A stretch of 63,268 nucleotides of DNA, filler included, from Asterionella formosa (GCA_002256025.1; 21 parts of 21 records of this genome joined end to end with filler, not necessarily neighbours in it); one strand, 5' to 3'; shown: positions 1,794 through 61,581, numbered from the whole stretch's first letter. Program-made: numbers and translations. Notes: generated by a model not told the origin, from the letters alone.

Positions 1794-3486
1794 GCACGTA
1801 GCCTTTCACTACAATACGTCCTTTGTATCGAATACTCTTATCCTGCTCGGATTTCTTCTTGAATACCCAGCGTGTGCCTAAGGGTTTTCTGCCCTTGAGA
1901 TTGTCACGAGGAACCATTTTCCAAACATTTCGCTTGTAGAAAATGTTGATTTCATTTTTTATAGCAACGGTCCACTGCTTGCTCTCGTCTCCTTTCATAG
2001 CCTCCTTGTAATGCTTTGGCTCCCCAGGATCGGAAGCAAGAGTTGTAGAATATGAATAGAACCTCTCTACTCCTTCTTCACTTTGAAATAGTTCATCATC
2101 ATCTTGATAGGCCGCTTCAGAATAATCTATTTCTTCAATTGATCCTTTGTTCTTGTCATCTAGTTGTAAGTTGCGCCGAGCACTGCGTTTGCCAGTAACT
2201 TCTTTCCAACCGTCAAGGCGTTTCAATTCTCGTTCCAATTTTGCTTTCTTCGAAGCATCTTTGTTGATCTCATCACCTAACTTCCCCACTGCTTCGGATA
2301 GTTGAAATCTTGTTTGTTTCACAACTGAAGCAGGTGTTTCGAAATCAATATCCTGTTGGATCGGTGGCACAACAGGAAGAACATCTTTGTCCTGCTTTTC
2401 ATCATCAATGGGAATAACAACCACTTCTGTGTCCCCTTCCACATTGAAATCCCTCAAACCTGCAATTGGACTTGTTTGGTCATGCCAATCAGCCCAGAGA
2501 ATGTTTCATCTATTTAAAATCTTTCTTGTCTGAGGGTTAAACATTCGGTAACAAGTGTCTCCAGCATGATCATGAGAATAACCAACCATCACACATTTAA
2601 TGGCCTTTTCTTCGAGTTTATTTGTTTTCTTAGCACCAATTTTCACCCATCCGATCCTGCCAAAATGCATTAGATGATCGTAAATCATTGGAACCTTTTT
2701 GTAAAACTTCTCATCTGCACTTTTTACATCATTAGATGTGGCCACAATGTTCGTGATTCGTGTGTTGGTGTTGATGGCCTCTGCCCAAAGTAAACCTTGA
2801 AATTCATCATTAAATTTTGCAGCAAACATTGCTGCACATGCTCGTTGACGAATGGTTACAAACTTTCGCTCCACAATTCCATTCTGTTGTGGTGTGTAGG
2901 GTGCCGTAAATTCGATTTGAATATTGAATTTGTCGCATAGTTTTGTCAAACCTGAGACGTTTTCACCCGCATTGTCACAACGGAGAAACTTGGTAACATA
3001 ATCAGCCGTTTTGAGTTTAGTCAACAAATCTTCAATCTTTGAAGCAAGCTGTGACTTCTTCTTAACAAAGAAACTCCAAGATTTTCCGGTGTAATCATCA
3101 ACAACAAGGATCCAATAGTCATTTCCTAAAATCGACTTTTTATATGGACCGCTGATATCTGTGCACAAACGTTCGCCTGGTTGAGTAGCCTTGCTCATAG
3201 TTATTTTAGGAACACTTTTTGCTTTAGCCTTAGCTAGCGCACATCCTTCACATGTATACATCACACCTGTCATTTTGATACCAAGCGATTTCATAGTAGC
3301 CCGCAATGCTGCTTCCCCAATATGTCCGTATTTAGCATGAGCTTCATTAATGTCCATACTGGTCAATTTAGTTGTGATGACCTCTGCAGATAAGATATCA
3401 CTCCCACCTGGGTAAATTCCACGAGTTCCTTGGAAATAGTACAAAACATCTGAATGATCACGTTTGAAATCTAGCGTCTCAGTTTT
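1794..3486 (-). mobile_element. Ty1/copia pol fragment (GAG-pre-integrase, integrase, RT start) with an in-frame stop
   Basis: HxxxGH...CEGC zinc motif, TDISGP, VVDD, RCDNAGE, TPQQNGIVER, then EPKHYKEAM and RWVFKKK. ORFs 2506-3444 and 1738-2457 share a frame and are split by TGA at 2506-2508. Near-identical to 45489-47178. Confidence 0.95.
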
Positions 3487-3586
3487 NNNNNNNNNNNNNN
3501 NNNNNNNNNNNNNNNNNNNNNNNNNNNNNNTTAATTAATTAANNNNNNNNNNNNNNNNNNNNNNNNNNNNNNNNNNNNNNNNNNNN

Positions 3587-7170: not shown

Positions 7171-8861
7171 CGACAATGAAGACAGAATGCAAGTTTGTAT
7201 GGAAGATGACAGTGTGAATGCTATTGTTAAAGCAATGTCAGAACTTGTACTGGAAAGTACAAAGTCGTCAATCTGAGTACAAAGTCGTCAATCTGTTCTT
7301 ACCCTGTGCAATTTATGAAGTCCCCTCGTCTGAGTGAGAATCCAGCCGACATTTCGCCAGCGAAAGTATTCAAGCTTCAATGGCTGCCGACTGTCTCACT
7401 GCATCCCTACTATGCACCTGGAGACGGAATGGTACCTTAAGTGAAAGCAAGAAAGGTTGCTCAATACATTTCCGACAATGAAGACAGAAGGCAAGTGTGT
7501 ATGAAAGATATCAGTGTGAATGTTTTTGTAAATGTATTGTCTGCACCAATTGAACTGAACAAAACTACTGAATGAAGAACAAAAACTACCAAAATTACCA
7601 AAACAACAAAAACAACAACATGAAATTCTATCAAGTTCGGTTTGCTCGCTGTGAAATGTTTCCTTAGAAGACACACTCGATCGTTCAAGTAACAACTGGT
7701 TTGGGACCCAGTAACCCCTACGGAGGTACGCCCTCGAGTTCAATTGTCTTCTTCTGGTCTCATCTCACAACAGGTAGACCGTTCTAACAAACCAAATGAG
7801 GCGGCGAATTACAACAATTTATTATTATAGAGCTAAAGTCTTATGAAGCTTTTCTTTTCGTGGATGACTATTTTGTATTATAGCAGGAGGCATAACCTTT
7901 TTTTCGGTTATGATATGACAATAACTTTGTCTTATAGAAGCTATAGAACGATTGGAGTTATTTCATTTCATTTCATTTTATCGGTATCGGTATCGGTAGT
8001 CTTGAACGAGAGCATCATCATTGGGTTTTAGGGTTTTAGACAACGAATAAAGTGAACAACACTTGTTGCGATTCAAGACCTTAGCGACCGTAACTGATTT
8101 AAAAACTGGGCACCAACAGGCTTAGTGGCAGGCAACAGGCAACAGTTTCTCACCCGCCGTACCGTGATCTCCCAGGGAACCAACGTATAAATTAAATGTT
8201 TTCAATAAGAGGGAAAAATCCCCGAAGGCTCTTTTCCAACCAGACATGAGTTTGTTTATGTCAACGTAATCTCCAGAGTTCAATGAATCGAGCATGCTTG
8301 CCACACCGGACCAGGCGTACAAGTATCGAATAGGCTTTTGATCGGGTAGAAAAGAAAAGAAATCAGATGAAATCAGATGAGATCAGATGAGATGAAATGA
8401 GATCAAATCAGATGAAATGAGATCAAATCAGATCAGATCTGATCTCACGAAATAATCATCTCGTAATTAAAATCAAAAATCATCCAATGTTCCAACTTTG
8501 AATTACATATTTGTTGAACAGTTGTTGATAGGAGGCACAGTCCTTGGACACTTCGCTACCCGATGATGGAAATATAATGGAACCATTTTGATGCAGACAA
8601 TGGACAGTGGATTGTGTGGACACAAAATATCGAGAACTCTCATGGAAGCTTTTTTGCAGAGCTGATGTGACCGCGGGTGACCGCACGCTCGCGTATTCGA
8701 CTTTGGTATACTACCAGGTACCGGTAGCATCAGAGCAGCTTCTGTCAAGTCGACAGGACAAGGAGGAGGAGTTAGCGCAGCAATTTGAGTGAATCGAAGA
8801 ATTCATGGAAGGATTCAGACTTGTCATTGTATCGTGCATCGAGCATCGAGCATCGAGCATC
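7171..8861. repeat. Contig duplicated almost exactly at 8962-10652
   Basis: Same length (1691 bp), same ends, identical ORF translations. The only differences I found are 9 substitutions in 7298-7353. Confidence 0.95.
8350..8445. repeat. Pentamer-type microsatellite (AGATG/AAATC/AGATC); also at 10141-10236
   Basis: Read directly. Both twin contigs also end in a (GCATCGA)n heptamer repeat. Confidence 0.9.
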
Positions 8862-8961: not shown

Positions 8962-10652
8962 CGACAATGAAGACAGAATGCAAGTTTGTATGGAAGATGA
9001 CAGTGTGAATGCTATTGTTAAAGCAATGTCAGAACTTGTACTGGAAAGTACAAAGTCGTCAATCTGAGTACAAAGTCGTCAATCTGTTTTTACCCTGTGC
9101 AAATTATGAAGTCCTTCCGTCTGAGTGAGAATCCAGCCGAAGGGTCGCCAGCGAAAGTATTCAAGCTTCAATGGCTGCCGACTGTCTCACTGCATCCCTA
9201 CTATGCACCTGGAGACGGAATGGTACCTTAAGTGAAAGCAAGAAAGGTTGCTCAATACATTTCCGACAATGAAGACAGAAGGCAAGTGTGTATGAAAGAT
9301 ATCAGTGTGAATGTTTTTGTAAATGTATTGTCTGCACCAATTGAACTGAACAAAACTACTGAATGAAGAACAAAAACTACCAAAATTACCAAAACAACAA
9401 AAACAACAACATGAAATTCTATCAAGTTCGGTTTGCTCGCTGTGAAATGTTTCCTTAGAAGACACACTCGATCGTTCAAGTAACAACTGGTTTGGGACCC
9501 AGTAACCCCTACGGAGGTACGCCCTCGAGTTCAATTGTCTTCTTCTGGTCTCATCTCACAACAGGTAGACCGTTCTAACAAACCAAATGAGGCGGCGAAT
9601 TACAACAATTTATTATTATAGAGCTAAAGTCTTATGAAGCTTTTCTTTTCGTGGATGACTATTTTGTATTATAGCAGGAGGCATAACCTTTTTTTCGGTT
9701 ATGATATGACAATAACTTTGTCTTATAGAAGCTATAGAACGATTGGAGTTATTTCATTTCATTTCATTTTATCGGTATCGGTATCGGTAGTCTTGAACGA
9801 GAGCATCATCATTGGGTTTTAGGGTTTTAGACAACGAATAAAGTGAACAACACTTGTTGCGATTCAAGACCTTAGCGACCGTAACTGATTTAAAAACTGG
9901 GCACCAACAGGCTTAGTGGCAGGCAACAGGCAACAGTTTCTCACCCGCCGTACCGTGATCTCCCAGGGAACCAACGTATAAATTAAATGTTTTCAATAAG
10001 AGGGAAAAATCCCCGAAGGCTCTTTTCCAACCAGACATGAGTTTGTTTATGTCAACGTAATCTCCAGAGTTCAATGAATCGAGCATGCTTGCCACACCGG
10101 ACCAGGCGTACAAGTATCGAATAGGCTTTTGATCGGGTAGAAAAGAAAAGAAATCAGATGAAATCAGATGAGATCAGATGAGATGAAATGAGATCAAATC
10201 AGATGAAATGAGATCAAATCAGATCAGATCTGATCTCACGAAATAATCATCTCGTAATTAAAATCAAAAATCATCCAATGTTCCAACTTTGAATTACATA
10301 TTTGTTGAACAGTTGTTGATAGGAGGCACAGTCCTTGGACACTTCGCTACCCGATGATGGAAATATAATGGAACCATTTTGATGCAGACAATGGACAGTG
10401 GATTGTGTGGACACAAAATATCGAGAACTCTCATGGAAGCTTTTTTGCAGAGCTGATGTGACCGCGGGTGACCGCACGCTCGCGTATTCGACTTTGGTAT
10501 ACTACCAGGTACCGGTAGCATCAGAGCAGCTTCTGTCAAGTCGACAGGACAAGGAGGAGGAGTTAGCGCAGCAATTTGAGTGAATCGAAGAATTCATGGA
10601 AGGATTCAGACTTGTCATTGTATCGTGCATCGAGCATCGAGCATCGAGCATC
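8962..10652. repeat. Second copy or haplotype of 7171-8861
   Basis: Offset +1791 from the first copy, with differences at 9089, 9103, 9115-9117 and 9141-9144. Confidence 0.95.
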
Positions 10653-12139: not shown

Positions 12140-12305
12140 TGCCTAATAAAAAACCAGCAGAATGCTGAACATATCGCCTTAACAGAATTATGTGCGACAA
12201 TAGCAACAATGCTATGATTTTATGCCTAATAAAAAACCAGCAGAATGCTGAACATATCGCCTTAACAGAATTATGTGCGACAATAGCAACAATGCTATGA
12301 TTTTA
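12140..12305. repeat. Perfect 83-bp tandem duplication
   Basis: TGCCTAATAAAAAACCAGCAG...GCTATGATTTTA starts at 12140 and again at 12223. Confidence 0.95.
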
Positions 12306-42201: not shown

Positions 42202-43900
42202 TCGTTTTTTGTGTAGCCACGCTCGGAGATGACTTATTTGAATGCCTGATGGGAAAAACGAGGAGGGAGGATCAAAGGCTAATAAGTACTGTGTGCAAAC
42301 CAGCAACGAAGGATGGAACAAGGAGCGATCTGATCAGATCAGCCAATTTGATTCTGTGTGTCGCACATCAAATCATACCGCTTGTAAAAAGGCAGTCGTG
42401 AAAAATCACAGATCGAGCGTTCCGTTTTCCAAAGCACCCGGATATTCATAAGCCCCTCAGCGCCACTCAGCCCATCGTCGAAGCATAAAAATACTCTGAG
42501 CACAAAGCAGGCTAGTACGGTGATGGTAATATATAAAATAATGATGCTTCCATTTCATACAATGATGCCTCTTGAGCCATGTGCCGGTATTTCTGTTTTT
42601 TCACATTCACCATCCTAAGGTCTCCAATGATGAGATTATTGCTTGCCAAAACAATTCAAAAGTTCGACGGAAAGGACCAAGAACTTGAATGGTTTTGAAC
42701 ATTCGTCTTTGATTTGTTCGTAGTCTACAAACAAATATATATCCCACACAGCGAAGGATGGGGTAAGTTTTGAATATATGTCTCTTTTGTGCATTCCGAG
42801 ACAAAAGAAACGAATGCGGATGACGGCCTTAAGAAACATCGAGAATGATTGCGCATGTACATATACACAATGATAGGTCATCAGATTCTCGTGTACAACG
42901 TCAAAATGGCCTCAGTGCAACGTAGAATACCATTGATGAGAAACTATAGAAGCGAATGACTCGAAACCATTAAACTAGGGATGGAATTCTCACATGATTA
43001 TTACTAACACGTTAATTATTTTCTCTAGAAATGAATGCCACATGCGTCTGTTATTGAAACCCATGAATGGCAATGGACAATTTTCACTCCATGTACATGC
43101 AAGACTAAGGTCTCAAAATAGGTACATGGATGGGAAATACAGTGGCAAGAACTTTCAATAACAAAAGCCAAGCCGGGATCGATTGTAAATTCTTCACGAG
43201 CGAGAGCTATTAGAAGTGCTGCTCCTTGGCCTAACATAAAATGAAACTACCATGTGTTCTGATTCATTTTTGAGATTTTTCTGCTATCGCAGGAGTGGCT
43301 ACATCAGATGAAATGGAATGGATGCGAGCGGAGGTCGATGATATGTTTTATCATAGGGAGAGTCGTCTACAGCTATAACATGCTAATTGGCAAGAGTCGA
43401 TGTCCCGAGTGCTATACTGTTATTCATATACCCGGTATGCTACTCCAGTACACAATTGTATTGCTATACTGAGTTGGTAGATGCTACGTATCTGTAGCTC
43501 TCACGCAGTAAAATTTGCTAGAAAAATGTTTCTACACAATTTGTTTGTTTTACTTTGTTTGCTAATAATTGTTTTTATAAAAGAGTGAGCTTAATGTANN
43601 NNNNNNNNNNNNNNNNNNNNNNNNNNNNNNNNNNNNNNNNNNTTAATTAATTAANNNNNNNNNNNNNNNNNNNNNNNNNNNNNNNNNNNNNNNNNNNNCA
43701 CCAAACAAGCAACCCTGATCATTCCATTCTGAGCAAGCGTGATCGCCACGCTGCTCCAGAACTATTGACTCTCTCTAGCTGAGTATTCATGTAGCTTCTG
43801 ATACGAACTCGTAGTAGAAATGTAGCAAAGCGCATTAGTACAAGAAAAGCATTGCTTGGCGGCAATATTGACATCATTGTCAACGACTATACCAATCAAC

Positions 43901-45042
43901 AAATATGATCAACAATGGCACAATACCACATCTTCAATGAGTAGTCATTGATAAATGCATTGGTTCTTATGTAGATATGTACAATCGAAACAAAACGACA
44001 GTGCGTAATGACAAACAACGATGGAAGCGATCAAAACAAACCACGGAAGCAATCAAATCGGAAAGTCGATAAATACGATCTACAATCCACATTCAGTATT
44101 GCACTGTTGTACTCACCGATCCGCTTCAACTAGCATAACAAGCAGCAGACGATGGGATCAAAGAAAGACGAATCTTGCCTATAGCAAGCCCGAATAGAGC
44201 AAAGGCAGGCAAGATAGAGTGAGAACTATATTTGTGAGGACGAAATTGGGCATACGGTACGTGAAATCAATGAATATGTGAACGATATAATTCAACATTT
44301 CAGGTCTCGTAAAAATAATACCGAGTCTACAGAGATAATATTATTACGTGTTCAAAGGAAGCGTTAAAGCATAGCTTTAACCATGCATGGTTGTTTTTAG
44401 TACCACGTATGTATGTAGACTAGATGACCACCGGTATCGGTAGAATATCCGTTAAGCATCATCACATACATGACCGGAGCAAAAACTTGCCACCAACATT
44501 AGATGTATCGATATCATCGTTCGTCCGACGAAATATGGACGATGCGACTACCGGTACATGAATACCTCGAGAAGACAAGCAATCCAACAATCAACCGCAT
44601 CCTTTAGGCAAAGAGTCGCTACTGGCATCATCGCGGAACTGATTTCGCTTCAAACCGGTCATGATGGACAACGATTGGCATGGTGAAAGGTGAATTGCCG
44701 GAGTCCACTTTTCATTAGACGAACAAAAACGAGGTGAATTCTAGATATAAATTATTAGAATCTGTATAGTATATAAAATGGTTTCCTTAAGTAGACCCCT
44801 TGCCGATTTCGGCAATCCCAGGGCTGGAAAAGCGAGGGGCAATTGGTGTCTGTTGTCTTGCCAAAATGCGAACATATGAAATATACAAAATATATTTTAA
44901 TGATGGGCAATATCGGACCTTTGGCAATTTTTCGAGGTGAAGATAGGAAATAAACAAAATATATTTTATATGATGGGCAATAGTAGGCTAAAATTGACAT
45001 GTATGCTAAATTTGTGGGCAGGAGGTAAGGGAATGACGCGAC
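43901..45042. repeat. Dispersed ~1.14-kb repeat, copy A (copy B at 54434-55567)
   Basis: Colinear and over 90% identical by eye. Contains ~40-bp direct repeats (AAAATATATTTT..TGATGGGCAATA). Homology ends at GAATGACGCGAC. Confidence 0.92.
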
Positions 45043-45044
45043 CG

Positions 45045-45162
45045 GCGCCACTCGTACAGTCAACCTACTCGCGCCACCCAGCCTCAAACACATGTATACT
45101 CGCAGGCAAGAGACCACCTCGGGCGTGTATTGCCTTCAGCAATCCCCACCCTAGCTATCGTC
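45045..45162 (-). other. Arm 1 of an imperfect inverted repeat, complementary to 55565-55681
   Basis: The reverse complement aligns to 55565-55681 in blocks (GACGATAGCTAG, CAATAC, CTTGCCT, GTATACATGTGT, GGCTGGG, GTAGG). Confidence 0.85.
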
Positions 45163-45488
45163 TTGCTTTTCGATGAGAACTGTTTTTGTCAAAGTAATTT
45201 TTGATGACTTTAAGTAATATTTTTATTTAGGGGCAATATGGGGCATAGTGGATTTTTTGGCAGTCAATTTTAAGTTTGAGCAGCAGGGACCATCGAGCAA
45301 AGTCACGAGTAGAATTTTCATGGGAAAAAGTTCGGACACATCAAAAATGCATGGACCACCGATTGCCGGTATATGCATGAAAAGTAGTNNNNNNNNNNNN
45401 NNNNNNNNNNNNNNNNNNNNNNNNNNNNNNNNTTAATTAATTAANNNNNNNNNNNNNNNNNNNNNNNNNNNNNNNNNNNNNNNNNNNN

Positions 45489-47178
45489 AAAACTGAGACG
45501 CTAGATTTCAAACGTGATCATTCAGATGTTTTGTACTATTTCCAAGGAACTCGTGGAATTTACCCAGGTGGGAGTGATATCTTATCTGCAGAGGTCATCA
45601 CAACGAAATTGACCAGTATGGACATTAATGAAGCTCACGCTAAATACGGACATATTGGGGAAGCGGCATTGCGGGCTACTATGAAATCGCTTGGTATCAA
45701 AATGACAGGTGTGATGTATACATGTGAAGGATGTGCGCTAGCTAAGGCTAAAGCAAAAAGTGTTCCTAAAATCACTATGAGCAAGGCTACTCAACCGGGC
45801 GAACGTTTGTGCACAGATATCAGCGGTCCATATAAAAAGTCGATTTTAGGAAATGACTATTGGATCCTTGTTGTTGATGATTACACCGGAAAATCTTGGA
45901 GTTTCTTTGTTAAGAAGAAGTCACAGCTTGCTTCAAAGATTGAAGATTTGTTGACTAAACTCAAAACGGCTGAGTATGTTACCAAGTTTCTCCGTTGTGA
46001 CAATGCGGGTGAAAACGTCTCAGGTTTGACAAAACTATGCGAGAAATTCAATATTCAAATCGAATTTACGGCACCCTACACACCACAACAGAATGGAATT
46101 GTGGAGCGAAAGTTTGTAACCATTCGTCAACGAGCATGTGCAGCAATGTTTGCTGCAAAATTTAATGATGAATTTCAAGGTTTACTTTGGGCAGAGGCCA
46201 TCAACACCAACACACGAATCACGAACATTGTGGCCACATCTAATGATGTAAAAAGTGCAGATGAGAAGTTTTACAAAAAGGTTCCAATGATTTATGATCA
46301 TCTAATGCATTTTGGCAGGATCGGATGGGTAAAAATTGGTGCTAAGAAAACAAATAAACTCGAAGAAAAGGCCATTAAATGTGTGATGGTTGGTTATTCT
46401 CATGATCATGCTGGAGACACTTACCGAATGTTTAACCCTCAGACAAGAAAGATTTTAAATAGTCGAAACATTCGCTGGGCTGATTGGCATGGCCAAACAA
46501 GTCCAATCGCAGGTTTGAGGGATTTCAATGTGGAAGGGGACACAGAAGTGGTTGTTATTCCAATTGATGATGCAAAGCAGGACGAAGATGTTCTTCCTGT
46601 TGTGCCACCTATCCAGCAGGATGTTGATTTGGAAACACCTGTTCCAGTTGTGAAACAAACAAGATTTCAGCTATCCGAAGCAGTGGGGAAGTTAGGTGAT
46701 GAGATCAACAAAGATGCTTCGAAGAAAGCAAAATTGGAACGAGAATTGAAACGCCTTGATGGTTGGAAAGAAGTTACTGGCAAACGCAGTGCTCGGCGCA
46801 GCTTACAACTAGATGACAAGGACAAAGGATCAATTGAAGAAATAGATTATTCTGAAGCGGCCTATCAAGATGATGATGAACTATTTCAAAGTGAAGAAGG
46901 AGTAGAGAGGTTCTATGCATATTCTACAACGCTTGCTTCCGATCCTGGGGAGCCAAAGCATTACAAGGAGGCTATGAAAGGAGACGAGAGCAAGCAGTGG
47001 ACCGTTGCTATTAAAAATGAAATCAACAATTTCTACAAGCGAAATGTTTGGAAAATGGTTCCTCGTGACAATCTCAAGGGCAGAAAACCCTTAGGCACAC
47101 GCTGGGTATTCAAGAAGAAATCCGAGCAGGATAAGAGTATTCGATACAAAGGACGTATTGTAGTGAAAGGCTACGTTC
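45489..47178 (+). mobile_element. Ty1/copia pol fragment (integrase to RT start), open frame
   Basis: Same family and same contig ends as 1794-3486, but uninterrupted. Confidence 0.95.
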
Positions 47179-47845
47179 NNNNNNNNNNNNNNNNNNNNNN
47201 NNNNNNNNNNNNNNNNNNNNNNTTAATTAATTAANNNNNNNNNNNNNNNNNNNNNNNNNNNNNNNNNNNNNNNNNNNNAGGGACGAAAATAGGAAGATTA
47301 AATTAAACGCCCAACAGGTATCCGGGCGACTCAATCTTCGTAATCCGGGCACTGCATGACACCTGCAAGTTGCCGTAATATTGCTGATACTAAATTTATT
47401 TAGCTATCTTTATCCGAAATTAAAATGTTTGTTTATGCAAAATGAGCGCTACTTGGTGAATAGAATATAAAATGAAAAGATTCGATTGCCGTATGGTATT
47501 TTCAGAGTGTGTCTGTTAGGCTGTTGATGTCGACAGGTGTCCAAAGACTAGGTAGTCTGAGGAATGTCTAAACGGAAATAGACAGGATTTCTATAGTAGA
47601 CATTCCAGGGCACGCTAGAGTAGGCGCCATATATTTTAACATGGTACCAGGTCGTGCGGTATTTAAGGGCGGTGGATACGAATTATATTCCGACCATGAT
47701 TCCAAACTGGTGAAAGACAGCTGTATCATGACTCAACTACGGTAAATTCGTCCATGACGATTGAACAAACAACCATGCCACATCATGAATTAAGAAATAT
47801 TTATAACCAAAGCGAGCCTTAACCAAATTCAACTTCCCAAAAACG

Positions 47846-48417
47846 ATGATGCGTCAAATCTCCCAATCCCTGTTGTTTGCCCTCACCATTTTCTTCTTAG
47901 AAGTGTTTCCGTCCCAAGCGACATTGAGTGTTACATGCGACAAAGAAACGTTGGCATTACGTGAAAACGCAACCCTAAAAGAACTTCAACGTGTAGTCTA
48001 TGCAAGTGTTTATGCGATTTAAATGCATGTTCCAAGCGTTTCGTCACTGTTTTTGAAAAAGAGCATAATTTGAATTTCACAGAAGCATGCAATGCAACAG
48101 GCGGAAAGATTCTCTCTCATAATTTAACCTTTAATTGTTCCGATAAAATAAAGGAGTACTCGAGATATGATCTAAGGTTCATCAAAGATGATGCTATTTG
48201 TGTGAGCAATAAATGTAATGCAAGCGAAGAGATGGAAATTCTTGTTAATTTTTCTGACTATCGCTATCCATTCATGGCTTCAACCACCGACGCAATCACT
48301 GCTGTGGTTTCGAGCTGCAACTTAATTGAGGAAACAAGCGGATCCAGTCACTGTGATGCCTACTTCGGATTGATCATATTTCTTTTCTCATCGCTTCTAG
48401 GTTTCTTGTTCTACTGA
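47846..48417 (+). pseudogene. Cys-containing secreted/surface protein with C-terminal hydrophobic (GPI-like) tail, one frameshift
   Basis: MMRQISQSLLFALTIFFLEVFPSQA...CDKETLAL stops near 48020. The -1 frame continues DLNACSK...EACNATGG...AICVSNKC...LLGFLFY. Confidence 0.7.
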
Positions 48418-49067
48418 ATAGTCATGCTGATAATTTCTGCGCGGATTCTTTTCATTCCAATATCAGTTCGGCACATTCATGTTAGTGTAACAACAGCAAA
48501 CTCATTCTTCATAAGTACAAGTTAATCCAAAGTCCTACTTTATGATCCATTTCCCTTGCATTTGATTTAGATTCTTCGGAAGGTTTTGGACAGAAGTTTT
48601 CATTGATGTAGCCTAATCGAACCTTTGAACTTTGGTCGAAGCATGGTAGTCATGCCAATTCTAATTAATTACGAATCTTTTGAGAAGAGTTGACCAATGG
48701 TAGAATGCAGATCATTAATTTGAATATGACAGCGAAAGTATCACATCCATATCTTCAGCATAAGTGAGTGTCCTTCATTCCAGCTTCATTATTTAGTTTT
48801 TATGACTATTTGAAATCATTCGCAGTATTAAGATCAACAATACTGTATTTATGCTAAGCTCGTAGTTCCACGTCGTGCAGATCGTTTCACTGGCTTTGTA
48901 TGTATTGCTTACATGCTGTCATGTATAAGAACTATTAGCAATAGTAATCAGTCATGAAAGCAGAAGCNNNNNNNNNNNNNNNNNNNNNNNNNNNNNNNNN
49001 NNNNNNNNNNNTTAATTAATTAANNNNNNNNNNNNNNNNNNNNNNNNNNNNNNNNNNNNNNNNNNNN

Positions 49068-50078
49068 GAAAATTCTAAATTCACCATGGAGCCAGTTTTG
49101 TTTTCTCTTGGGATTTTCCGTACAACTGTAAGGAACAAAGTCATTGCTTGGCTTTCCCTTGGTCTAATACCAAAACTTGATGGTCAGAGTCTTGCATTGA
49201 ACAAAAATATGACTGCCGACGATAAGTGCAAGGATTATCACACAATTTTGGCAATTATATTGTCGGGAGTTCAAGAGACTCAGAAATCTGGTGGCTTCAA
49301 CTATAATTTCAATTTCCATGGCAAACAGCATAGCCTGGTTGTAAAGGTACCGGTCGGGTTGGTGCTTGGCGATGCGGAAGGATTGGACAATCAGTGTGGG
49401 AGGATTAAATATTACCTGAAAACTTTTCGTCTCTGTCGGGAATGTGATTGTTCATACGACAAATTAGATAAACCATCAATCAAATGCTCTCCAGTAGGGC
49501 AAGTGGGTTATGCTGCCCTATTAGGAATGAACGACAAAACACTAATGGATGCCGTGTCACAACGTTTTATTACACCTTGCTGGTATGCGCTGGATTTTGG
49601 TGGAGATCCATTGGGAATCAATGGCCATTGCCCTCCTGAAAAGTTGCACTCAATACATGAGGGAATGATGCGTTATCTCATTCTTCTGTTCTCGGTAAAG
49701 TTCGGCACTGTTACCTCTGCTCAGGGGTTGAAAAATAGAACCGCTTTTGATACATTGTTCATAAAAGTGTCAAAGATGATGCAACATCAAAGCGATCGGG
49801 ATATGCCAAGGTGCAATTTTCATGGTGGATTCCATGGATGTTTTCCAAAGATTACAAGAAATGAAACCGTTGGGGTAATGCTTGTTGCTTGTTTGGTAAT
49901 GGCTACAGACGCCGGAATCAAGCTTTGCAAGGATGAGGTTGGAATGTCAATGCAGGAAATAAAAGACATCCAAATAATTTTCGAGGGCATGGTTTGTTAT
50001 AATTCCTGGTTCAGCCAAGAAAGTTACGCAAAGGCCAAAGCGAGCGTTGGTCAATGTGTACGACAGGGTCTCCAATAA
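49068..50078 (+). mobile_element. Plavaka-type (CACTA/Mirage/Chapaev-related) transposase fragment
   Basis: EPVLFSLGIF...RN...AW..LG.IP, GDAEGLDNQCGR, CRECDC, PPEKLH...EG and HQSDRDMPR. Recognised from motif pattern only. Confidence 0.75.
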
Positions 50079-50145
50079 ATCAGTTCTCGACCATGCCCGG
50101 AAGCCTTCCGAAATCAAGAAAATCGTTCCTTGCGTCTGCAAATAA

Positions 50146-50756
50146 AAAGTCGGTGTCCGTGTCATCCTCATCAATAGAGAGACAAGTTCTTTCGTTGGAA
50201 AAATTGGTACCGTATCCTATCTCGGTTTAAAAAAATCAATGGTGATCTCGAACAGCCTACGTGCATCCCGACTTGGAAGAATTATCCCCATTCTTCCAGT
50301 TCCACTTCCTGAGAACACATATTGGGTTGTGGTTAAATGGAGACTTCGAGTACTGCTTGATCAGCATCGTGACCACACTCACCGTATTTTACTTCGTCAT
50401 TTCCTACAAGGTCATGTCGAAGATACCGTGAATGCGGACCTTGATAGTTTATTGGACGTCATGTTTAGGAGACTGGAGTCAGTGAATTCGTCAACTTTCA
50501 TTAAAAAGAAGGGCGGAAAAAAGATTGGATGGCATGCACTTGTTATTGATCATAGCAATGTCAAGTTTGCTAGAAGCTTTGTTGATGAGGTTTGGCCTTC
50601 GAACCAATGTGACCGCATTAAACATCTCAACATTTTCTTACCAAAAGTTGCAGACGCGATGAAAACTGTTCATTTGATTATTGATGATGATTTCATGCTA
50701 CAGATTGAAGGGACTCTATCTTCCAAGATATTTTTGTTGAATTTGTCTTTCCTCCC
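50146..50756 (+). CDS. Hypothetical ORF, 3'-partial
   Basis: Frame is open from 50146 to the contig end. No family recognised. Confidence 0.35.
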
Positions 50757-50856
50757 NNNNNNNNNNNNNNNNNNNNNNNNNNNNNNNNNNNNNNNNNNNN
50801 TTAATTAATTAANNNNNNNNNNNNNNNNNNNNNNNNNNNNNNNNNNNNNNNNNNNN

Positions 50857-52315
50857 CCCCCACCCCGCACCTCGTTGTAGCCAGGGTACTAGCTCAAACA
50901 CTGGTATGGGTACCACAATTGCTGGGGGCATTTTGACATTTTCCATGATGTCATATACGGTCATATCTGTTGTGATATTGGACTTCCCATGCCACTCTCC
51001 CCACTTAATGTTCCTAGTATTGATCACTTTCTTGGTGTCTGGTTGGTACATTCTGTATGTGTCCCCTGCATGGTTGTCAGAGTACCCAATCATCATACAC
51101 TCAGTAGCTTTAGCCTCAAGTTTCTGGTATTTTCACCCAACCAATTCTTCCAAATTCAACAAGATTATCATATATCTCAGGACACTTCCCATAGAAAATC
51201 CAATCTGGGCTTTTCTGCATGTTGTTTGTGTTGCATACACTATTTGTGATGCGTGTGTGTGTGTTGATACTTTCTGTCCATAAGAGTCCTTGTGACTCAT
51301 CAGAAAATTTATCCTTCAACATTGCAGCGACGCTTCTGTCTCTAATAGTCACAAATTTGCGTTCCTCCATACCGTTTTGCTGTGGGGTGTGTGGAGCAGT
51401 AAATTCGATAGTGATATTAAGCCTGTCACACATTGCAGAAAGTCCCTTGATATTTTACCCAGCATTGTCACATCGCAGGTACCAAATCATGTAGTTGGCA
51501 TTGCCTAATTTAAGCAATAGTGGTTCCACGTAGCCGCCATCTGCAACTTTTTCTTGACAAAGAAACTCCAGGATTTTCCACTATATTCATCAACGACCAA
51601 AATCCAGTAAGTACTCCCAACAATATTCTTCTTGTAAGGGCCACATATATCTGCAACTAAACTCTCACCTGCCATAGTCGCTTTGTTAGTTGCAACTTTA
51701 GGTACAGCCTCTGATTTTGCTTTAGCCAAAGCACATCCCTCACATGGCTGTAGGGCGGCTCCACTGGTCTCAATACCAATTGACTTCAATGTAGCATGCA
51801 GAGCTGCCTCGCTAGTGTACCCTAATTTGTCATGTGCAACATTGATGTCCATACTTTTCTTAGGTGTAGGCTTAATAGGGTTGCCGGTCATTGGCGCAGC
51901 TTCCTCGTTGTTGTCCTCTGTGGACAATGCTGTTTCGTTGCCGTGCTTTCTAGTACCATGCATATGGTAGAGCACACCGTTGGCCTTGCTCTTGAAAGTT
52001 AGTCCGTCGTGCTCCCCTTCCTTGCGTAGGGTCATCTTGTCCTTGAGAATACCAACCTCGAAACTCCCATTTCGCACAAGCATACCGGCACTTAGTATAT
52101 TCTTGTGGAAGGTAGGTGTATATTATAGGACCTTCTGTGTAACAGTATCAGTGAGGAGGATGTCACCACGTTTGGTGCATAAAATTTTTGCCAACGCACG
52201 ATGACTTGAGTCTTGACTGTTTCGATATTTGTCATACCAACATCGCACGTAGTGATATGACTTGTAGCTCCTGTAGCCGCTAACCATTCTTCAGTCTTGA
52301 CATCATCACTCACAG
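50857..52315 (-). mobile_element. Degenerate Ty1/copia (protease, GAG-pre-integrase, integrase)
   Basis: WLAATGATSH (decayed DSGA), CEGCALAKAK, DICGP, TPQQNGMEER and GYSDNHAGDTYRM, with several frameshifts. Related to the 45489 family. Confidence 0.9.
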
Positions 52316-52474
52316 TCAGTATATCACTTGATGATGTAGCGATATATATAAGAGATTGAGTCTTAAATGGAAGGTAATGAAAACTAGAAATTTCCAGAAG
52401 ATTACAGATTGTAGAAGGATCCAAGGTTGTGTAGAACTTAAGTGACAAACTGTGTGAAAGGTCAAGAAGAGTGA

Positions 52475-52544
52475 ATCTTGTAGGGATTTAAGGTGGTGGA
52501 TCTTGTAGGGATCCAAGGTGGTGGATCTTGTAGGGATCCAAGGT
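52475..52544. repeat. 25-bp minisatellite (ATCTTGTAGGGATCCAAGGTGGTGG) x ~2.8, running into the gap
   Basis: Units start at 52475, 52500 and 52525, with a degenerate copy near 52408. Confidence 0.9.
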
Positions 52545-53227
52545 NNNNNNNNNNNNNNNNNNNNNNNNNNNNNNNNNNNNNNNNNNNNTTAATTAATTAA
52601 NNNNNNNNNNNNNNNNNNNNNNNNNNNNNNNNNNNNNNNNNNNNGTTTTCACTTACGTAATTGATCGCCTTTTGGTTGCAGAAGATTGAGATTTTATGAG
52701 TATTCGAATGACAGATTGCTTAGCGACGAGGTTCATAGCAACCAGCCCAAGCGTTCCTGTTTCAAATAAATCAATCAAATACAGCTCAGGCAAAGCGCCA
52801 GGGGAGGCTTCCAGGAACTACTGGTACCTGGTACTCGGAGTACATGCAATCATAATGGGATGAAGTAAAGCGATCTTTCAATCTCATCATTATAAAAACT
52901 TCCGTGTATATATATACGGTATGTAGACTGAAACATTTTAGTCATGATGATTTTTGTGTTTATCATGAACCCGGTATGTACCGGTATGTAGGATATAAAA
53001 AATCATTCTTAGCTATTATTTTATTTCATACGTACCGGTACACTTGCCGGTATGTAGGTAACAGCAAGTTGCGGTCATTTTGCTTGAACTAACATTTTAG
53101 TCTGGGATAAAAATAGCTAAATTTTTAGACATAAAATCGAAAAAGTGCTGTAAACGGCGTCTTAGATTTATTCGAAGACCGTGTAACTTATGTAATGTTC
53201 ATCCTCATAGTTTGTTACTGTGTAAAT

Positions 53228-53711
53228 AGCTATAATTAAACAAAACTATATACACCCAGCAAAGTTAAATAAATCCACGAGCTCTCCTAATCTAGATACC
53301 AAATCACTCGATGGATCTTACATGTAAAGATAGTGCAACAATATAAACTAATCTAGAGTCATGATTCAGTATAGACATCTAGTAGGACAAATGGTTGGCC
53401 TAGTCTGACAGATTACCTCTTCAGACCATTTACTACAAGATCTGATTTCGACGAAAGGTCTCATACATTGATTCCCTAATGATTAAGGGGTTATCTAGAC
53501 TAACTAAGACTTTTGCTCTAGAAAGCTGCACCCCATAAGTAATCTTTACTTAATATCAAAGCTACTAGGATTAAACCTAGCAAAGATTGTGAATGGACTA
53601 GATTGCCCTTATGCATAAACCAAGGGTAACAAGTCACCAGGGGTTCTCAAATGCTCCGTTTCCAAGATTAGATCTACCCAGCGAGCAAATATAGTTTAAT
53701 AACAATTAGCT
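53228..53711 (+). ncRNA. Putative structured non-coding RNA domain (nested multi-helix fold)
   Basis: Three nested long-range helices plus several local hairpins found by eye, and no ORF of 60 aa or more. Expression is unknown. Confidence 0.5.
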
Positions 53712-53767
53712 CACTCTTTTTATACTCCCTGAAAACGCTTGGACTGATCCCCACGTATCATAGGGCG

Positions 53768-54332
53768 GTGTTGCAATCAAAAGCACAGCCAAGCACCATT
53801 GGAAAAAACAACGTGGTGACGCAACCTGGACAGTGCGTGTCCATAGATCAGCTTGAATCACCGACGCCGGGATTTATCGCTCAGTTAAAAGGTGTTCCTA
53901 CAACGCAAAGATATAATTCCTCAATTATCTTTGCCCCGAACGAAACATATCAACATCAAATATCATCACTTTCAGGGGAATATCAGACGCCAATTGATCA
54001 AAATTGAGGAAGTTTCTACTCATGATCAGCTGGCAGATATTTTTTCTAAGCCACTTCCGTTATTTCTGTTCCGGAAACATTTATATGTATTCGAACATAA
54101 AGGAATATCGACTTCACATTTTAAACGAGATTCACTAGTGCAGCAGAGCGTGTTGATTCTCAGCACGGGCGGGGTTGTGATGTGAATTGTTAACTGATCA
54201 GTTCTCAGCGGTTGACTGATAGGTTCACAGGGGTTCATCCAACTTAGTGTAGAGTGCTCATAATAAATAGATCAGAATATATTTGTTATTTGCTAACTAC
54301 ATTTAGCTATTATCTAAATTCGCCTTAGCCTC
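53768..54332 (+). mobile_element. Internally deleted CoDi-like copia: integrase start fused to RNase H end, PPT-like tract and LTR start
   Basis: PGQCVSIDQLESPTPGFIAQLKG joins PRTKHINIKYHHF...QLADIFSKPL near 53930. GGGCGGGG at 54167-54174 is followed by TGTGA at 54176. Confidence 0.8.
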
Positions 54333-54433
54333 NNNNNNNNNNNNNNNNNNNNNNNNNNNNNNNNNNNNNNNNNNNNTTAATTAATTAANNNNNNNNNNNN
54401 NNNNNNNNNNNNNNNNNNNNNNNNNNNNNNNNA

Positions 54434-55567
54434 AAATACGATCAACAACGGCACAATACCACATCTTCAATGAGTAGTCATTGATAAATGCATTGGTTCT
54501 TATGTAGATATGTACAATTGAAACAAAACGACAGTGCGTAACGACAAACAACGATGGAAGCGATCAAAACAACCACGGAAGCAATCAAATCGGAAAGTCG
54601 ATAAATACGATCTACAATCCACATTCAGTATTTCACTGTTGTCCTCACCGATCCGCTTCAACTAGCATAACAAGCAGCAGACGATGGGATAAAAGAAAGA
54701 CGAACGTTGCCTATTGCAAGCCCGAATAGAGCAAAGGCAGGCAAGATAGAGTGAGAACTATATTTGTGAGGACGAAATCGGGCATACGGTACGTAAAATC
54801 AATGAAAATGTGAACGATAAAATTCAACATTTCAGGTCTCGTAAAAATAATACCGAGTCTACAGAAATTATATTATTACGTGTTCAAAGTAAGCGTTAAA
54901 GCATAGCTTAAACCATGCATGGTTGTTTTTAGTACCACGTACATATGTAGACTAGATGACTGCCAGTACCGGTAGAATATCCGTTTAGCATCATTACATA
55001 CATGGCTGGAGCAAAAACTTGCCACCAACATCAGATGTATCGATATCATCGTTCGTCCGACGAAATATGGACAATGCGACTACATGAATACCTCGAGAAG
55101 GCAAGCAATCCAACAATCAACCGCATCTGTTAGGCAAAGAATCGCTACTGGCGTCATTGCGGAACAGATTTCGCTTCAAACCGGTCATGATGGACGACGA
55201 TTGGCATGGTGAAAGGTGAATTGCCGGAGTCCGCTTTTCAGGAGACAAACAAAAACAAGGTGAATTCTAGATATAAATTATAAGAATCTGTATAGTATAT
55301 AAAATGGTTTCCTTAAGTAGACCCCTTGCCGACTTCGGCAATCCCAGGGCTAGAAAACCGAGGGGCAATTGGCGTCTGTTGTCTTGCCAAAATGCGAACA
55401 TATGAAATATAAAAAATATACTTTAATGATGGGCAATATCGGACCTTTGGCAATTTTCGAGGTGAAGATAGGAAATATCCAAAATATATTTTATATGATG
55501 GGCAATAGTAGGCTAAAATTGACATTTATGCTAAATTAGTGGGCAGTAGGTAAGCGAATGACGCGAC
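54434..55567. repeat. Dispersed repeat, copy B (homologous to 43901-45042)
   Basis: Direct alignment by eye. Confidence 0.92.
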
Positions 55568-55681
55568 GATAGCTAGAGCGGGAATTGCCTCAACAATACC
55601 CTTCTCGGCGGCTACTTGCCTTCTCGTATACATGTGTACTCGGCTGGGATGGCACTTGTAGGGTGACCTTCTCGCAGCGCT
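55565..55681 (-). other. Arm 2 of the imperfect inverted repeat, complementary to 45045-45162
   Basis: Blockwise complementarity to arm 1, with CTC/CTT interruptions at 55589, 55604, 55623, 55639, 55655 and 55671. Confidence 0.85.
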
Positions 55682-56220
55682 ACGACAACAGGAACTAGAA
55701 GCCGTCGTTTCTCTCAAAGAGCATTGACAAATACTGCTAAGCGCAAAGAGCCAGATGATAACCGGCGAGCTGCATTAGCAATGTGTGCACTAGAAAGGAA
55801 AAAGAAGCTTGGGTATGCATGTTGTTGATTGGTGTGTGCTTCCGCCCATGCTGGCTGACCGAATTTTCGATTTCATCCTAACATAATATTCAATTCATTA
55901 CATTCTTCTGTTTATTGGAATGGAATGAGGTTGTTGCAAATGCTGCAAGTAGTCCCGAAGTAGCCATTGATTGGAACAATGAAGAAATAGAATGGTGCAT
56001 TTGTTGTTGATTGTTGCATAATTGTGCTTCCATTGTGATTCATCTATCATTGATGATGCGATCACTCACAGTCGCATTGTTCCCTTTCCGGTCATTGTCA
56101 GCTTTAAAGAACCTTCTAAANNNNNNNNNNNNNNNNNNNNNNNNNNNNNNNNNNNNNNNNNNNNTTAATTAATTAANNNNNNNNNNNNNNNNNNNNNNNN
56201 NNNNNNNNNNNNNNNNNNNN

Positions 56221-60807: not shown

Positions 60808-61157
60808 CTTTCAATTTTACGATTATTCGATCCTGAAACTATGATGCTTTACTGTCCCGCTGCAGTAGCAACTGTCCTGAACATATGGTGTTAAGTTGCT
60901 CGCTTACTACTCCGACTACCCCCTTTCAATTTTACGATCATACGATCCTGAAACTATGATGATTTACTGTCCCACTGCAGTAGCAACAATCCTGAACATA
61001 TGGCTGGTGTTCTGTTGCTTGCTTACTACTCCGACTCCCCTCTTTCAATTTTACGATCATATGATCCTGAAACTATGATAATTTACTGTCCCGCTGCAGT
61101 AGCAACAGTCCTGAATATGTGGTGTTCTGTTGCTCGCTTACTACTCCGACTTCCCCC
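60808..61157. repeat. Tandem repeat, 3 x 115-119 bp
   Basis: Units begin CTTTCAATTTTACGAT at 60808, 60923 and 61042. Confidence 0.95.
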
Positions 61158-61581
61158 AGTATGTCACTTCCTACCTGCTACTGCTGGTACTCTGTATATA
61201 TATGATAAAATGTTATGATCATACTATGATGTACACATGAAGAACTCCCGCCCATAAAGGGGCTTGAATAATTAGCTACCAAAATCCTTGCATATAAATA
61301 ATGATACAAATGGGTTACACCAATTGAATGGTCTAAGTAATTAATTACAACGGACATAGAAAACATTGATGCAAACAAATTACAGAAACAATACCTGTAC
61401 ACGTAGTCATGGAAAAAAATGGACATATAGTGCATTGAATATTTTCGAATTATGTATATGCGAATATGATCATCTCAGCAANNNNNNNNNNNNNNNNNNN
61501 NNNNNNNNNNNNNNNNNNNNNNNNNTTAATTAATTAANNNNNNNNNNNNNNNNNNNNNNNNNNNNNNNNNNNNNNNNNNNN

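Follow-up and report, generated by a model that had tools for sequence, protein, structure and literature searches.

Results

The two arms lie on separate assembly contigs

The window, by which we mean the whole stretch of 63,268 nucleotides analyzed here, consists of 21 contigs joined by 20 artificial linkers of the form N44-TTAATTAATTAA-N44 (1694-1793, 3487-3586, and so on to 61482-61581). Twenty of the contigs are 1,686-1,693 bp long and stand in almost falling order of length, and the remaining one spans 27,475 bp (16124-43598). The large contig carries intron-poor eukaryotic genes (LRR, RabGAP-TBC, ankyrin, inositol monophosphatase and CRAL-TRIO), and several of the small contigs are fragments of Copia-type RT or integrase. 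An ESM Atlas look-up with one protein of the window returned the label 'inositol monophosphatase' and no useful taxon. Two pairs of whole contigs are near-duplicates, one in reverse orientation (1794-3486 and 45489-47178, 98.0% identity, encoding a Copia-type integrase and RT) and one in direct orientation (7171-8861 and 8962-10652, 99.5%). These are probably allelic or paralogous repeat copies that were left unplaced by the assembler. Tandem duplications were also observed, namely a perfect 83-bp duplication in contig 7 (1388-1553; window 12140-12305) and three 115-bp units of approximately 90% identity in contig 20 (1013-1362; window 60808-61157). For users of the assembly, this means that the window is a concatenation of leftover contigs, and that long-range features across linkers are thus not real.

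The two arms studied here are located on two of the small contigs, contig A (1,690 bp, 43699-45388) and contig B (1,688 bp, 54433-56120). According to the linker map and the contig list, both are separate contigs of the assembly, bounded by artificial linkers. One linker (45389-45488) directly follows contig A, and eleven contig junctions lie between the arms. The order, orientation and 10.4-kb distance of the arms therefore carry no information, and the rod split by approximately 10 kb that was described in the initial annotation is an artefact of the joining. Neither contig contains an ORF longer than 126 amino acids.

All features of the two contigs are given on the plus strand. As the initial annotation had stated, the contigs share a repeat of approximately 1.1 kb, here called R, which was aligned by BLAST over 1,142 bp at 94.4% identity. 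In contig A it occupies 43901-45042 and ends in GACGCGAC, and in contig B it occupies 54434-55567. On contig A, R is followed by the arm 1 core (45043-45143), a distal stem (45144-45162) and a right-hand sequence, Y (45163-45388), which is itself highly repeated and contains GGCAAT motifs. On contig B, an 18-nt proximal stem (55565-55582), which shares the last 3 nt of R, is followed by the arm 2 core (55583-55680) and a sequence Z (55681-56120). The sequences that follow R are imperfect reverse complements of each other, as had been noticed, with 72.6% identity over 106 nt in BLAST (E 3e-7). When arm B was aligned globally with arm A in reverse complement, 83 Watson-Crick, 28 mismatch and 13 gap columns were obtained, and the inverted match reaches 3 nt into the repeat, through the GAC of GACGCGAC. 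The two end motifs of the hairpin were found nowhere else in the whole window except in the partner arm. Matches with three mismatches at 7534 and 9325 were rejected, being located in an unrelated duplicated contig.

Intact copies join the arms into one hairpin

A single scan of metagenome contigs with a pattern fitting both arms returned eight loci, three of which are members of the family: L001 (1,185 nt), L006 (1,134 nt) and L002. The other five (L003-L005, L007 and L008) all stem from a single unrelated locus with a chance match. Scans of genome contigs and of viral contigs with this pattern each gave 0 matches. In L001 and L006, which are independent contigs, R is followed without a break by arm 2, a GGG loop and arm 1, with the two arms side by side, and L002 begins inside arm 1. 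Thus, each arm is one half of a single imperfect hairpin of approximately 235 nt, which is located directly 3' of R and is made of an 18-bp outer stem, a core of approximately 100 bp per arm and a 3-nt loop. In the intact copy L001, the inverted repeat is located at 539-556 and the stem-loop at 557-758, with the boundary of the family at 757/758.

Logan contigs of four runs (X1, X2, X11 and X16, the latter two being RNA libraries) were placed on L001. X1 may come from the same sample as the window. The apex of the hairpin is bridged by six listed records: record 6 of X1, record 30 of X2, records 14 and 15 of X11, and records 19 and 20 of X16. The prediction that both arms occur in cis in one molecule is thereby borne out by L001, L006 and the Logan records, but the interior that was expected between them amounts to the 3-nt loop only. 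Sequence Z of contig B starts exactly at the apex after arm 2, where it replaces arm 1, and it has no match in the intact copies.

In contig A, R is joined directly to arm 1 at the apex, and in contig B arm 2 ends at the apex and is followed by Z. Contig A looks like a copy with a deleted arm 2, as had been proposed, and similar joints exist in X1. The hairpin-centred joints in this run include L001 548>657 (with 5 letters between), 614>657 and 609>711, as well as a strand switch at 602/656, showing that half-hairpin variants exist in the reads. Contigs A and B may be such hairpin-tip deletion or rearrangement variants, or misjoins.

A four-base word of one polarity recurs at the mismatches

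All twelve CTC or CTT sites that had been listed for the two arms are present on the plus strand. In arm A, the word is CTCG at 45051, 45068, 45099 and 45118, CTCA at 45083 and CTTC at 45135, and in arm B it is CTCG at 55604, 55623, 55639 and 55671, CTCA at 55589 and CTTG at 55655. The reverse complement, CGAG, is absent from the plus strand of both window arms. In the hairpin of L001, the plus strand contains ten CTCG and no CGAG. The CTCG are spaced at 19, 16, 16, 16, 21 (over the apex), 17, 15, 16 and 19 nt, with a mean spacing inside each arm of 16.75 nt. Ten of the words form five facing CTCG:CTCG pairs, in which the outer bases are closing C-G pairs and the inner two bases are mismatched, giving 2x2 loops. 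These loops are T.C/C.T on the plus strand and tandem G.A/A.G in a CGAG context on the minus strand. At the sixth site, CTCAA lies opposite CTTCA. The mismatches of L001 comprise 12 T.C/C.T on the plus strand (G.A/A.G on the minus strand) and 2 of the reverse type, in addition to 2 C.C, 2 A.A and 1 T.T.

The pattern is not expected by chance. None of 20,000 mononucleotide shuffles of the L001 hairpin reached ten CTCG. Drift was simulated with 20,000 inverted repeats that received 29 random substitutions each, and we counted facing identical tetramers, whichever the tetramer, with the outer bases paired and the inner bases mismatched. There were 0 such tetramers in 18,537 of the simulated repeats, 1 in 1,410, 2 in 52 and 3 in a single one, as compared to 5 in the intact copy, all of which are CTCG. 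The claim that simple inversion plus drift would not give this pattern thus holds. The mismatch sites are also not random among copies, as they are found at the same positions in every copy compared, and the variants are confined to single copies with CTTG, CTCA or CTCA at one site each. We conclude that the regular same-strand CTCG mismatches are real and conserved, and as yet unexplained. If a word runs in one direction on both halves of an inverted repeat, duplication plus drift cannot be its origin, nor is it what a protein binding duplex DNA at inverted ends would select. It points to one strand, with both arms on it, as the molecule under constraint.

The minus strand folds better than the plus strand

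The initial annotation had placed the structured form on the minus strand. Folded as RNA, L001 536-778 reached -151.7 kcal/mol on the minus strand (z -15.3) and -123.1 kcal/mol on the plus strand (z -11.9). The window arms, co-folded as two RNA strands, gave -157.4 kcal/mol for the minus pair and -119.8 kcal/mol for the plus pair. The difference of 28.6 kcal/mol between the strands was matched by 8 of 300 hairpins with random mismatches, so that the energies are suggestive of a strand preference of modest strength. In the minimum-energy fold of the minus strand, the CGAG:CGAG sites are symmetric 2x2 loops, and no helix longer than approximately 16 bp is left in the hairpin.

Purine.purine mismatches number 15 on the minus strand and 4 on the plus strand (binomial p 0.019, for sites that are not independent). 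A bias of G.U wobbles towards the minus strand had also been claimed. Its direction was recovered, but the counts are 7 versus 3, both in the window pair and in L001, rather than about 12 versus 3 (binomial p 0.34). A common A/G polymorphism at L001 616 keeps the base pair only on the minus strand. By a by-eye tally, six transitions between copies fall at paired sites, and four of these keep the minus-strand pair and two the plus-strand pair. Compensatory changes between the arms were not seen among the 3-4 copies compared, since the arms barely vary (97-98% identity). No Rfam family was matched in window 43699-56120, nor in L001, L006 and L002, and rows below the threshold (SCARNA7 at 17 bits, mir-2041 at 20 bits and CrcZ at 16 bits) were dismissed as chance. 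ARAGORN identified 0 genes.

A very abundant repeat family has the hairpin as its conserved end

A total of 91,976 of the 9.5 million Logan records of X1 were placed on the 1,185-nt L001, along with 5,025 records of X2, 1,036 of X11 and 115 of X16. The stretch is present in 20 runs from 15 studies, mostly freshwater metagenomes. The family, whose members are interspersed, non-coding and very numerous, belongs to a freshwater eukaryote that is probably an alga. Two points go beyond the initial annotation, namely that the hairpin is the conserved end of this family and that the boundary of the family is located inside arm 1.

The right-hand boundary lies at the base of the hairpin core, between window positions 45143 and 45144, which correspond to 757/758 of L001. 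Both L006 and L002 depart from the family at this position, and their flanks are unrelated to each other except for short GGTACC-type repeats. The flank of L002 runs into a tocopherol cyclase gene (Pfam E 6e-114). In all four runs, loose ends were found at L001 755-757 with an agreement to the consensus of only 0.36-0.5, which means that many different flanks follow the boundary. A 5' end with an unrelated upstream flank was seen in only 3 contigs, all from one RNA run (X16).

The identity between copies is 88-95% in R, 97-98% in the hairpin core, 74% in the 18 nt past the boundary and 70% in Y. The window cores agree with these values: the arm 1 core is 97% identical to arm 1 of L001, L006 and L002, and the arm 2 core is 97% identical to L001 and L006. 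The proximal stem is identical in L001 and has 1 change in L006. The distal stem is 74% identical to L001, and L006 and L002 diverge here. Y, also marked as repeated by its depth, is approximately 70% identical to Y of L001. Compared to R, the higher conservation of the core was significant in two comparisons with L006 (Fisher, p 3e-5 and 9e-5), whereas the comparison of the window with L001 was not significant (p 0.096). Of all parts of the family, the hairpin core is conserved best.

The 18 nt before arm 2 (55565-55582 in the window) have their complement in the 18 nt directly past the boundary, both in L001 and in contig A, and the complementarity extends weakly to L001 530/784. The distal stem on contig A may belong to an adjoining copy, as its 5' inverted repeat. 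The hexamer GGCAAT/ATTGCC occurs 12 times in L001, 10 times in contig A and 7 times in contig B, as compared to 0.5-0.8 expected occurrences (approximately 20-fold), and 28 times in the 59.5 kb of the rest of the window. It is located on both sides of the hairpin (window 44694-45367 and 55220-55506; L001 193-885), and from their placement these hexamers look like subterminal binding-site repeats.

Three further observations were made in the family and its flanks. R holds a 68-nt internal duplication (L001 369-411 and 437-480). Palindromic repeats of the type GGTACC(A/T)GGTACC are located at L006 719-800 and L002 68-330, within approximately 100 nt of the end of the element, and could reflect a target preference or a second repeat. 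In X16, a lake metatranscriptome, the summed contig depth peaks at L001 721-840, which covers the end of arm 1 and the start of Y, and one contig of high depth has a 92-nt go-back joint (811>720). Contig depth cannot rank expression, and depth in the RNA runs was not counted as evidence of expression.

Discussion

A proposed terminal hairpin with a Helitron2-like layout

The reading that we favor, while giving it somewhat less than an even chance, is that a non-autonomous transposon has this hairpin as a cis-acting signal at its end, that the hairpin is read in single-stranded form, and that the element has a Helitron2-like layout. That the hairpin serves as an end signal is suggested by the mobile family of which it is the conserved end and by the short subterminal repeats on either side of it. 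That the mobilizing enzyme would read it single-stranded is suggested by the four-base word, which keeps one polarity on both arms. The parts follow one another as inverted repeat, stem-loop and terminus, and some copies go straight on into the matching repeat of what would be a next unit, as expected of Helitron2/HLE2 rolling-circle elements at a head-to-tail junction. The complementary 18-mer that directly follows the boundary in L001 and contig A is placed as at such a junction. The regular mismatches would keep the long palindrome from becoming a perfect duplex and, at the same time, offer evenly spaced contacts of one polarity. The hairpin-centred deletions in X1 (609>711, 614>657 and 548>657) fit a structure that truly extrudes.

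According to the cited parts of the descriptions, the 3' hairpin of Helitron2 elements is immediately preceded by a 3' inverted repeat, and their 5' end has a repeat at a distance of 0-2 bp (PMC3627910). HLE2 elements have the stem-loop downstream of the right repeat, insert between T and T, and show more diversity at the left end than at the right (PMC11417382). The same excerpt describes an 'HLE2-reverse' form whose 5' end bears the stem-loop, an arrangement also present in the oomycete proto-Helentron (PMC11417382), and tandem insertions and joined ends of Helitrons are mentioned in the cited part of another report (PMC5148889). As far as these sources go, our family resembles Helitron2/HLE2, including the 'HLE2-reverse' or proto-Helentron elements of fungi and oomycetes, in the inverted repeat directly upstream of a terminal stem-loop, in what may be the matching repeat at the other end of the unit, and in the conserved stem-loop end combined with a more diverse other end. 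Head-to-tail copies are known for these elements, and their non-autonomous derivatives far outnumber the autonomous ones. A T follows ...CAG(C/T)AA in 4 of 4 sequences, and this T could belong to the element.

The likeness claimed is one of layout, not of membership. The stem-loop of approximately 200 nt is about ten times too long as compared to the described elements, the 3' repeats of which are located 20-50 bp from the end in the cited passages (PMC3627910, PMC5148889). A 5' hairpin together with the 5' repeat, as in the definition of Bao and Jurka, was not seen in L001 756-815 (z +0.57) or window 45142-45201 (z +0.38), both compared to shuffles. No transposase or RepHel was found among the 15 longest ORFs of the short contigs, which comprised 6 Copia-type RT/integrase, 1 weak Plavaka and 8 with no hit. 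No left terminus, target site or empty site was seen in the copies at hand. The strand that folds better and bears the G.A pairs is the minus strand, which also argues against this layout, as a canonical 3' hairpin would be read on the plus strand. To our knowledge, no Helitron has a periodic same-polarity word in its stem-loop, and no description of such an element was found in the literature searched on diatom MITEs, Helitrons and Helentrons, introners, and G.A hairpins in transposons. A stwintron paper was set aside, as its cited part uses the word 'sheared' in another sense (PMC8469720).

Alternative explanations

Several other readings of the hairpin were weighed. It might be a tamed palindrome with no function of its own, that is, an old inverted duplication that survives because the mismatches stop cruciform extrusion, with its high conservation due to recent amplification or arm-to-arm conversion rather than to selection. 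The many hairpin-centred deletions and strand switches in X1, along with the breaks of contigs A and B at the apex, indicate that the palindrome is unstable, and the lack of any helix above approximately 16 bp is what a tamed palindrome would look like. However, any mismatch would serve this end, yet the five sites share their tetramer, polarity and even spacing. Moreover, the core is 2-5 times better conserved than R in the same copies, so that recent amplification alone is no explanation. We consider this reading improbable. It is likewise unlikely, in our judgement, that the minus strand is transcribed and that the hairpin of 235 nt works as an RNA, in which the five or six tandem G.A loops of the CGAG:CGAG type, approximately 1.5 helical turns apart, would be protein-binding or packaging sites, or interruptions that alter Dicer-type handling. 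The advantage of 28.6 kcal/mol for minus-strand RNA, the excess of purine.purine mismatches on that strand (15 to 4, with the dependence between sites noted above) and the polymorphism at L001 616 all point in this direction. One exact tetramer at all five sites would also fit a structural motif with sequence requirements, and contigs from two metatranscriptome studies (the X11 and X16 records that bridge the apex) span the hairpin. These contigs show neither strand nor level, though, and carry-over of DNA is possible at such a copy number. The wobble bias and the 4-to-2 split of transitions are slight, Rfam gave no match, and covariation is absent from arms that barely vary. A further view, also somewhat unlikely, is that the rod represents a novel class of cis element, a 100-bp stem where selection maintains an exact CGAG:CGAG loop of constant polarity every 1.5 turns. 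The loops would then be evenly spaced structured contacts on a single-stranded transposition intermediate of DNA or RNA, acting as a scaffold for measuring or oligomerization, or as a device that hides a long duplex from silencing and from structure-specific nucleases.

The two remaining readings concern other kinds of mobile DNA. A foldback or MITE-type DNA transposon, with the arms as long terminal inverted repeats bound as duplex by a DDE transposase, would agree with the long inverted arms, which have almost no loop between them, the high copy number and the short GGCAAT subterminal repeats. We regard it as very unlikely, as the family does not end at the arm ends: the right boundary is located inside arm 1, the left side reaches more than 1 kb further (R) or has its start at L001 520, and the ends are not inverted repeats. 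In addition, a transposase that binds duplex DNA would have its sites in opposite orientation on the two arms, whereas CTCG keeps one polarity, and no target-site duplication is visible in the copies at hand. The plus strand can also be read as an introner, a transposon-borne intron running from AG|GTAAGC to CCTTCAG|, in which the hairpin would join the splice sites. Transposons of many types, helitrons among them, have given rise to introners, which are found in stramenopile algae, as stated in the cited part of a recent report (PMC12130899). A donor-like AG|GTAAG is located 15 nt before the stem (45023-45030 and 55548-55555, plus strand) and an acceptor-like CCTTCAG| 4 nt before the family boundary (45133-45139, plus strand). 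Bracketing the module, the consensus-like donor is present in 4 of 4 copies and the pyrimidine-rich acceptor in 5 of 5. The listed pieces of two longer records cover just L001 520-759 (record 30 of X2 and record 14 of X11), and the element of L002 is located upstream of its gene in the same orientation. Nevertheless, 0 of 5 copies interrupt an ORF and 4 of 5 are joined to the non-coding body R. The splice signals, which were spotted post hoc, are on the strand that folds worse, with the acceptor base-paired in the stem, and we find an introner highly improbable. Replitrons, which have short direct terminal repeats and an 11-bp palindrome, were set aside; in the cited part of the report, their author did not detect them in any diatoms (PMC10288648).

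Comparison with known structures

Tandem sheared G.A pairs in a Y-GA-R context are stable in DNA and RNA hairpins and form the cores of K-turn and SECIS motifs. The minus-strand CGAG opposite CGAG, with tandem G.A/A.G closed by C-G pairs, has this form. A K-turn needs a 3-nt bulge beside the G.A pairs, and the suggested kinship to K-turn or SECIS cores was not upheld, the loops being symmetric 2x2 loops without an asymmetric bulge and without a match to an Rfam family. A regular array of G.A loops along a 100-bp stem is not a described motif in the literature searched.

Parvovirus hairpin telomeres have a mismatched 'bubble' in the stem, and the AAV terminal repeat carries tetranucleotide Rep-binding repeats. 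The telomeres and our hairpin have in common a long imperfect palindrome, which in parvoviruses is read by a single-strand nuclease, conserved mismatches that distinguish the arms, and a repeated 4-nt word. They differ in that the parvoviral structures terminate viral genomes of linear single-stranded DNA, contain one or two bubbles and have their repeats side by side, whereas the present hairpin exists in thousands of copies on chromosomes, its five or six loops are evenly spaced, and no viral gene accompanies it.

The instability of palindromes with breaks at the centre is attributed to hairpin-tip cleavage and deletion. The breaks of contigs A and B at the apex, and the many apex-centred deletions and the strand-switch joint in X1, resemble this process. 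It explains the split of the arms, but not the hairpin or its pattern.

Implications

A terminal hairpin of a transposon, the reading that we tentatively prefer, is of a known kind; it is the internal regularity that is striking and unexplained. Neither duplex DNA nor drift would leave a four-base word running the same way on both arms, and this points to a single-stranded molecule as the target of selection. The signature is found in a freshwater, alga-like eukaryote, where it marks the best-conserved end of a repeat that is among its most abundant. If the hairpin works as an RNA, it would be a natural array of tandem G.A loops for which a protein partner could be sought. If the rod is a new cis element, it would account for the great success of the family. 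If the Helitron2-like reading is true, rolling-circle elements can use a stem-loop approximately ten times longer than described, with an internal periodic code, and this would provide a handle for finding such elements in genomes of the stramenopile type, in which their annotation is poor.
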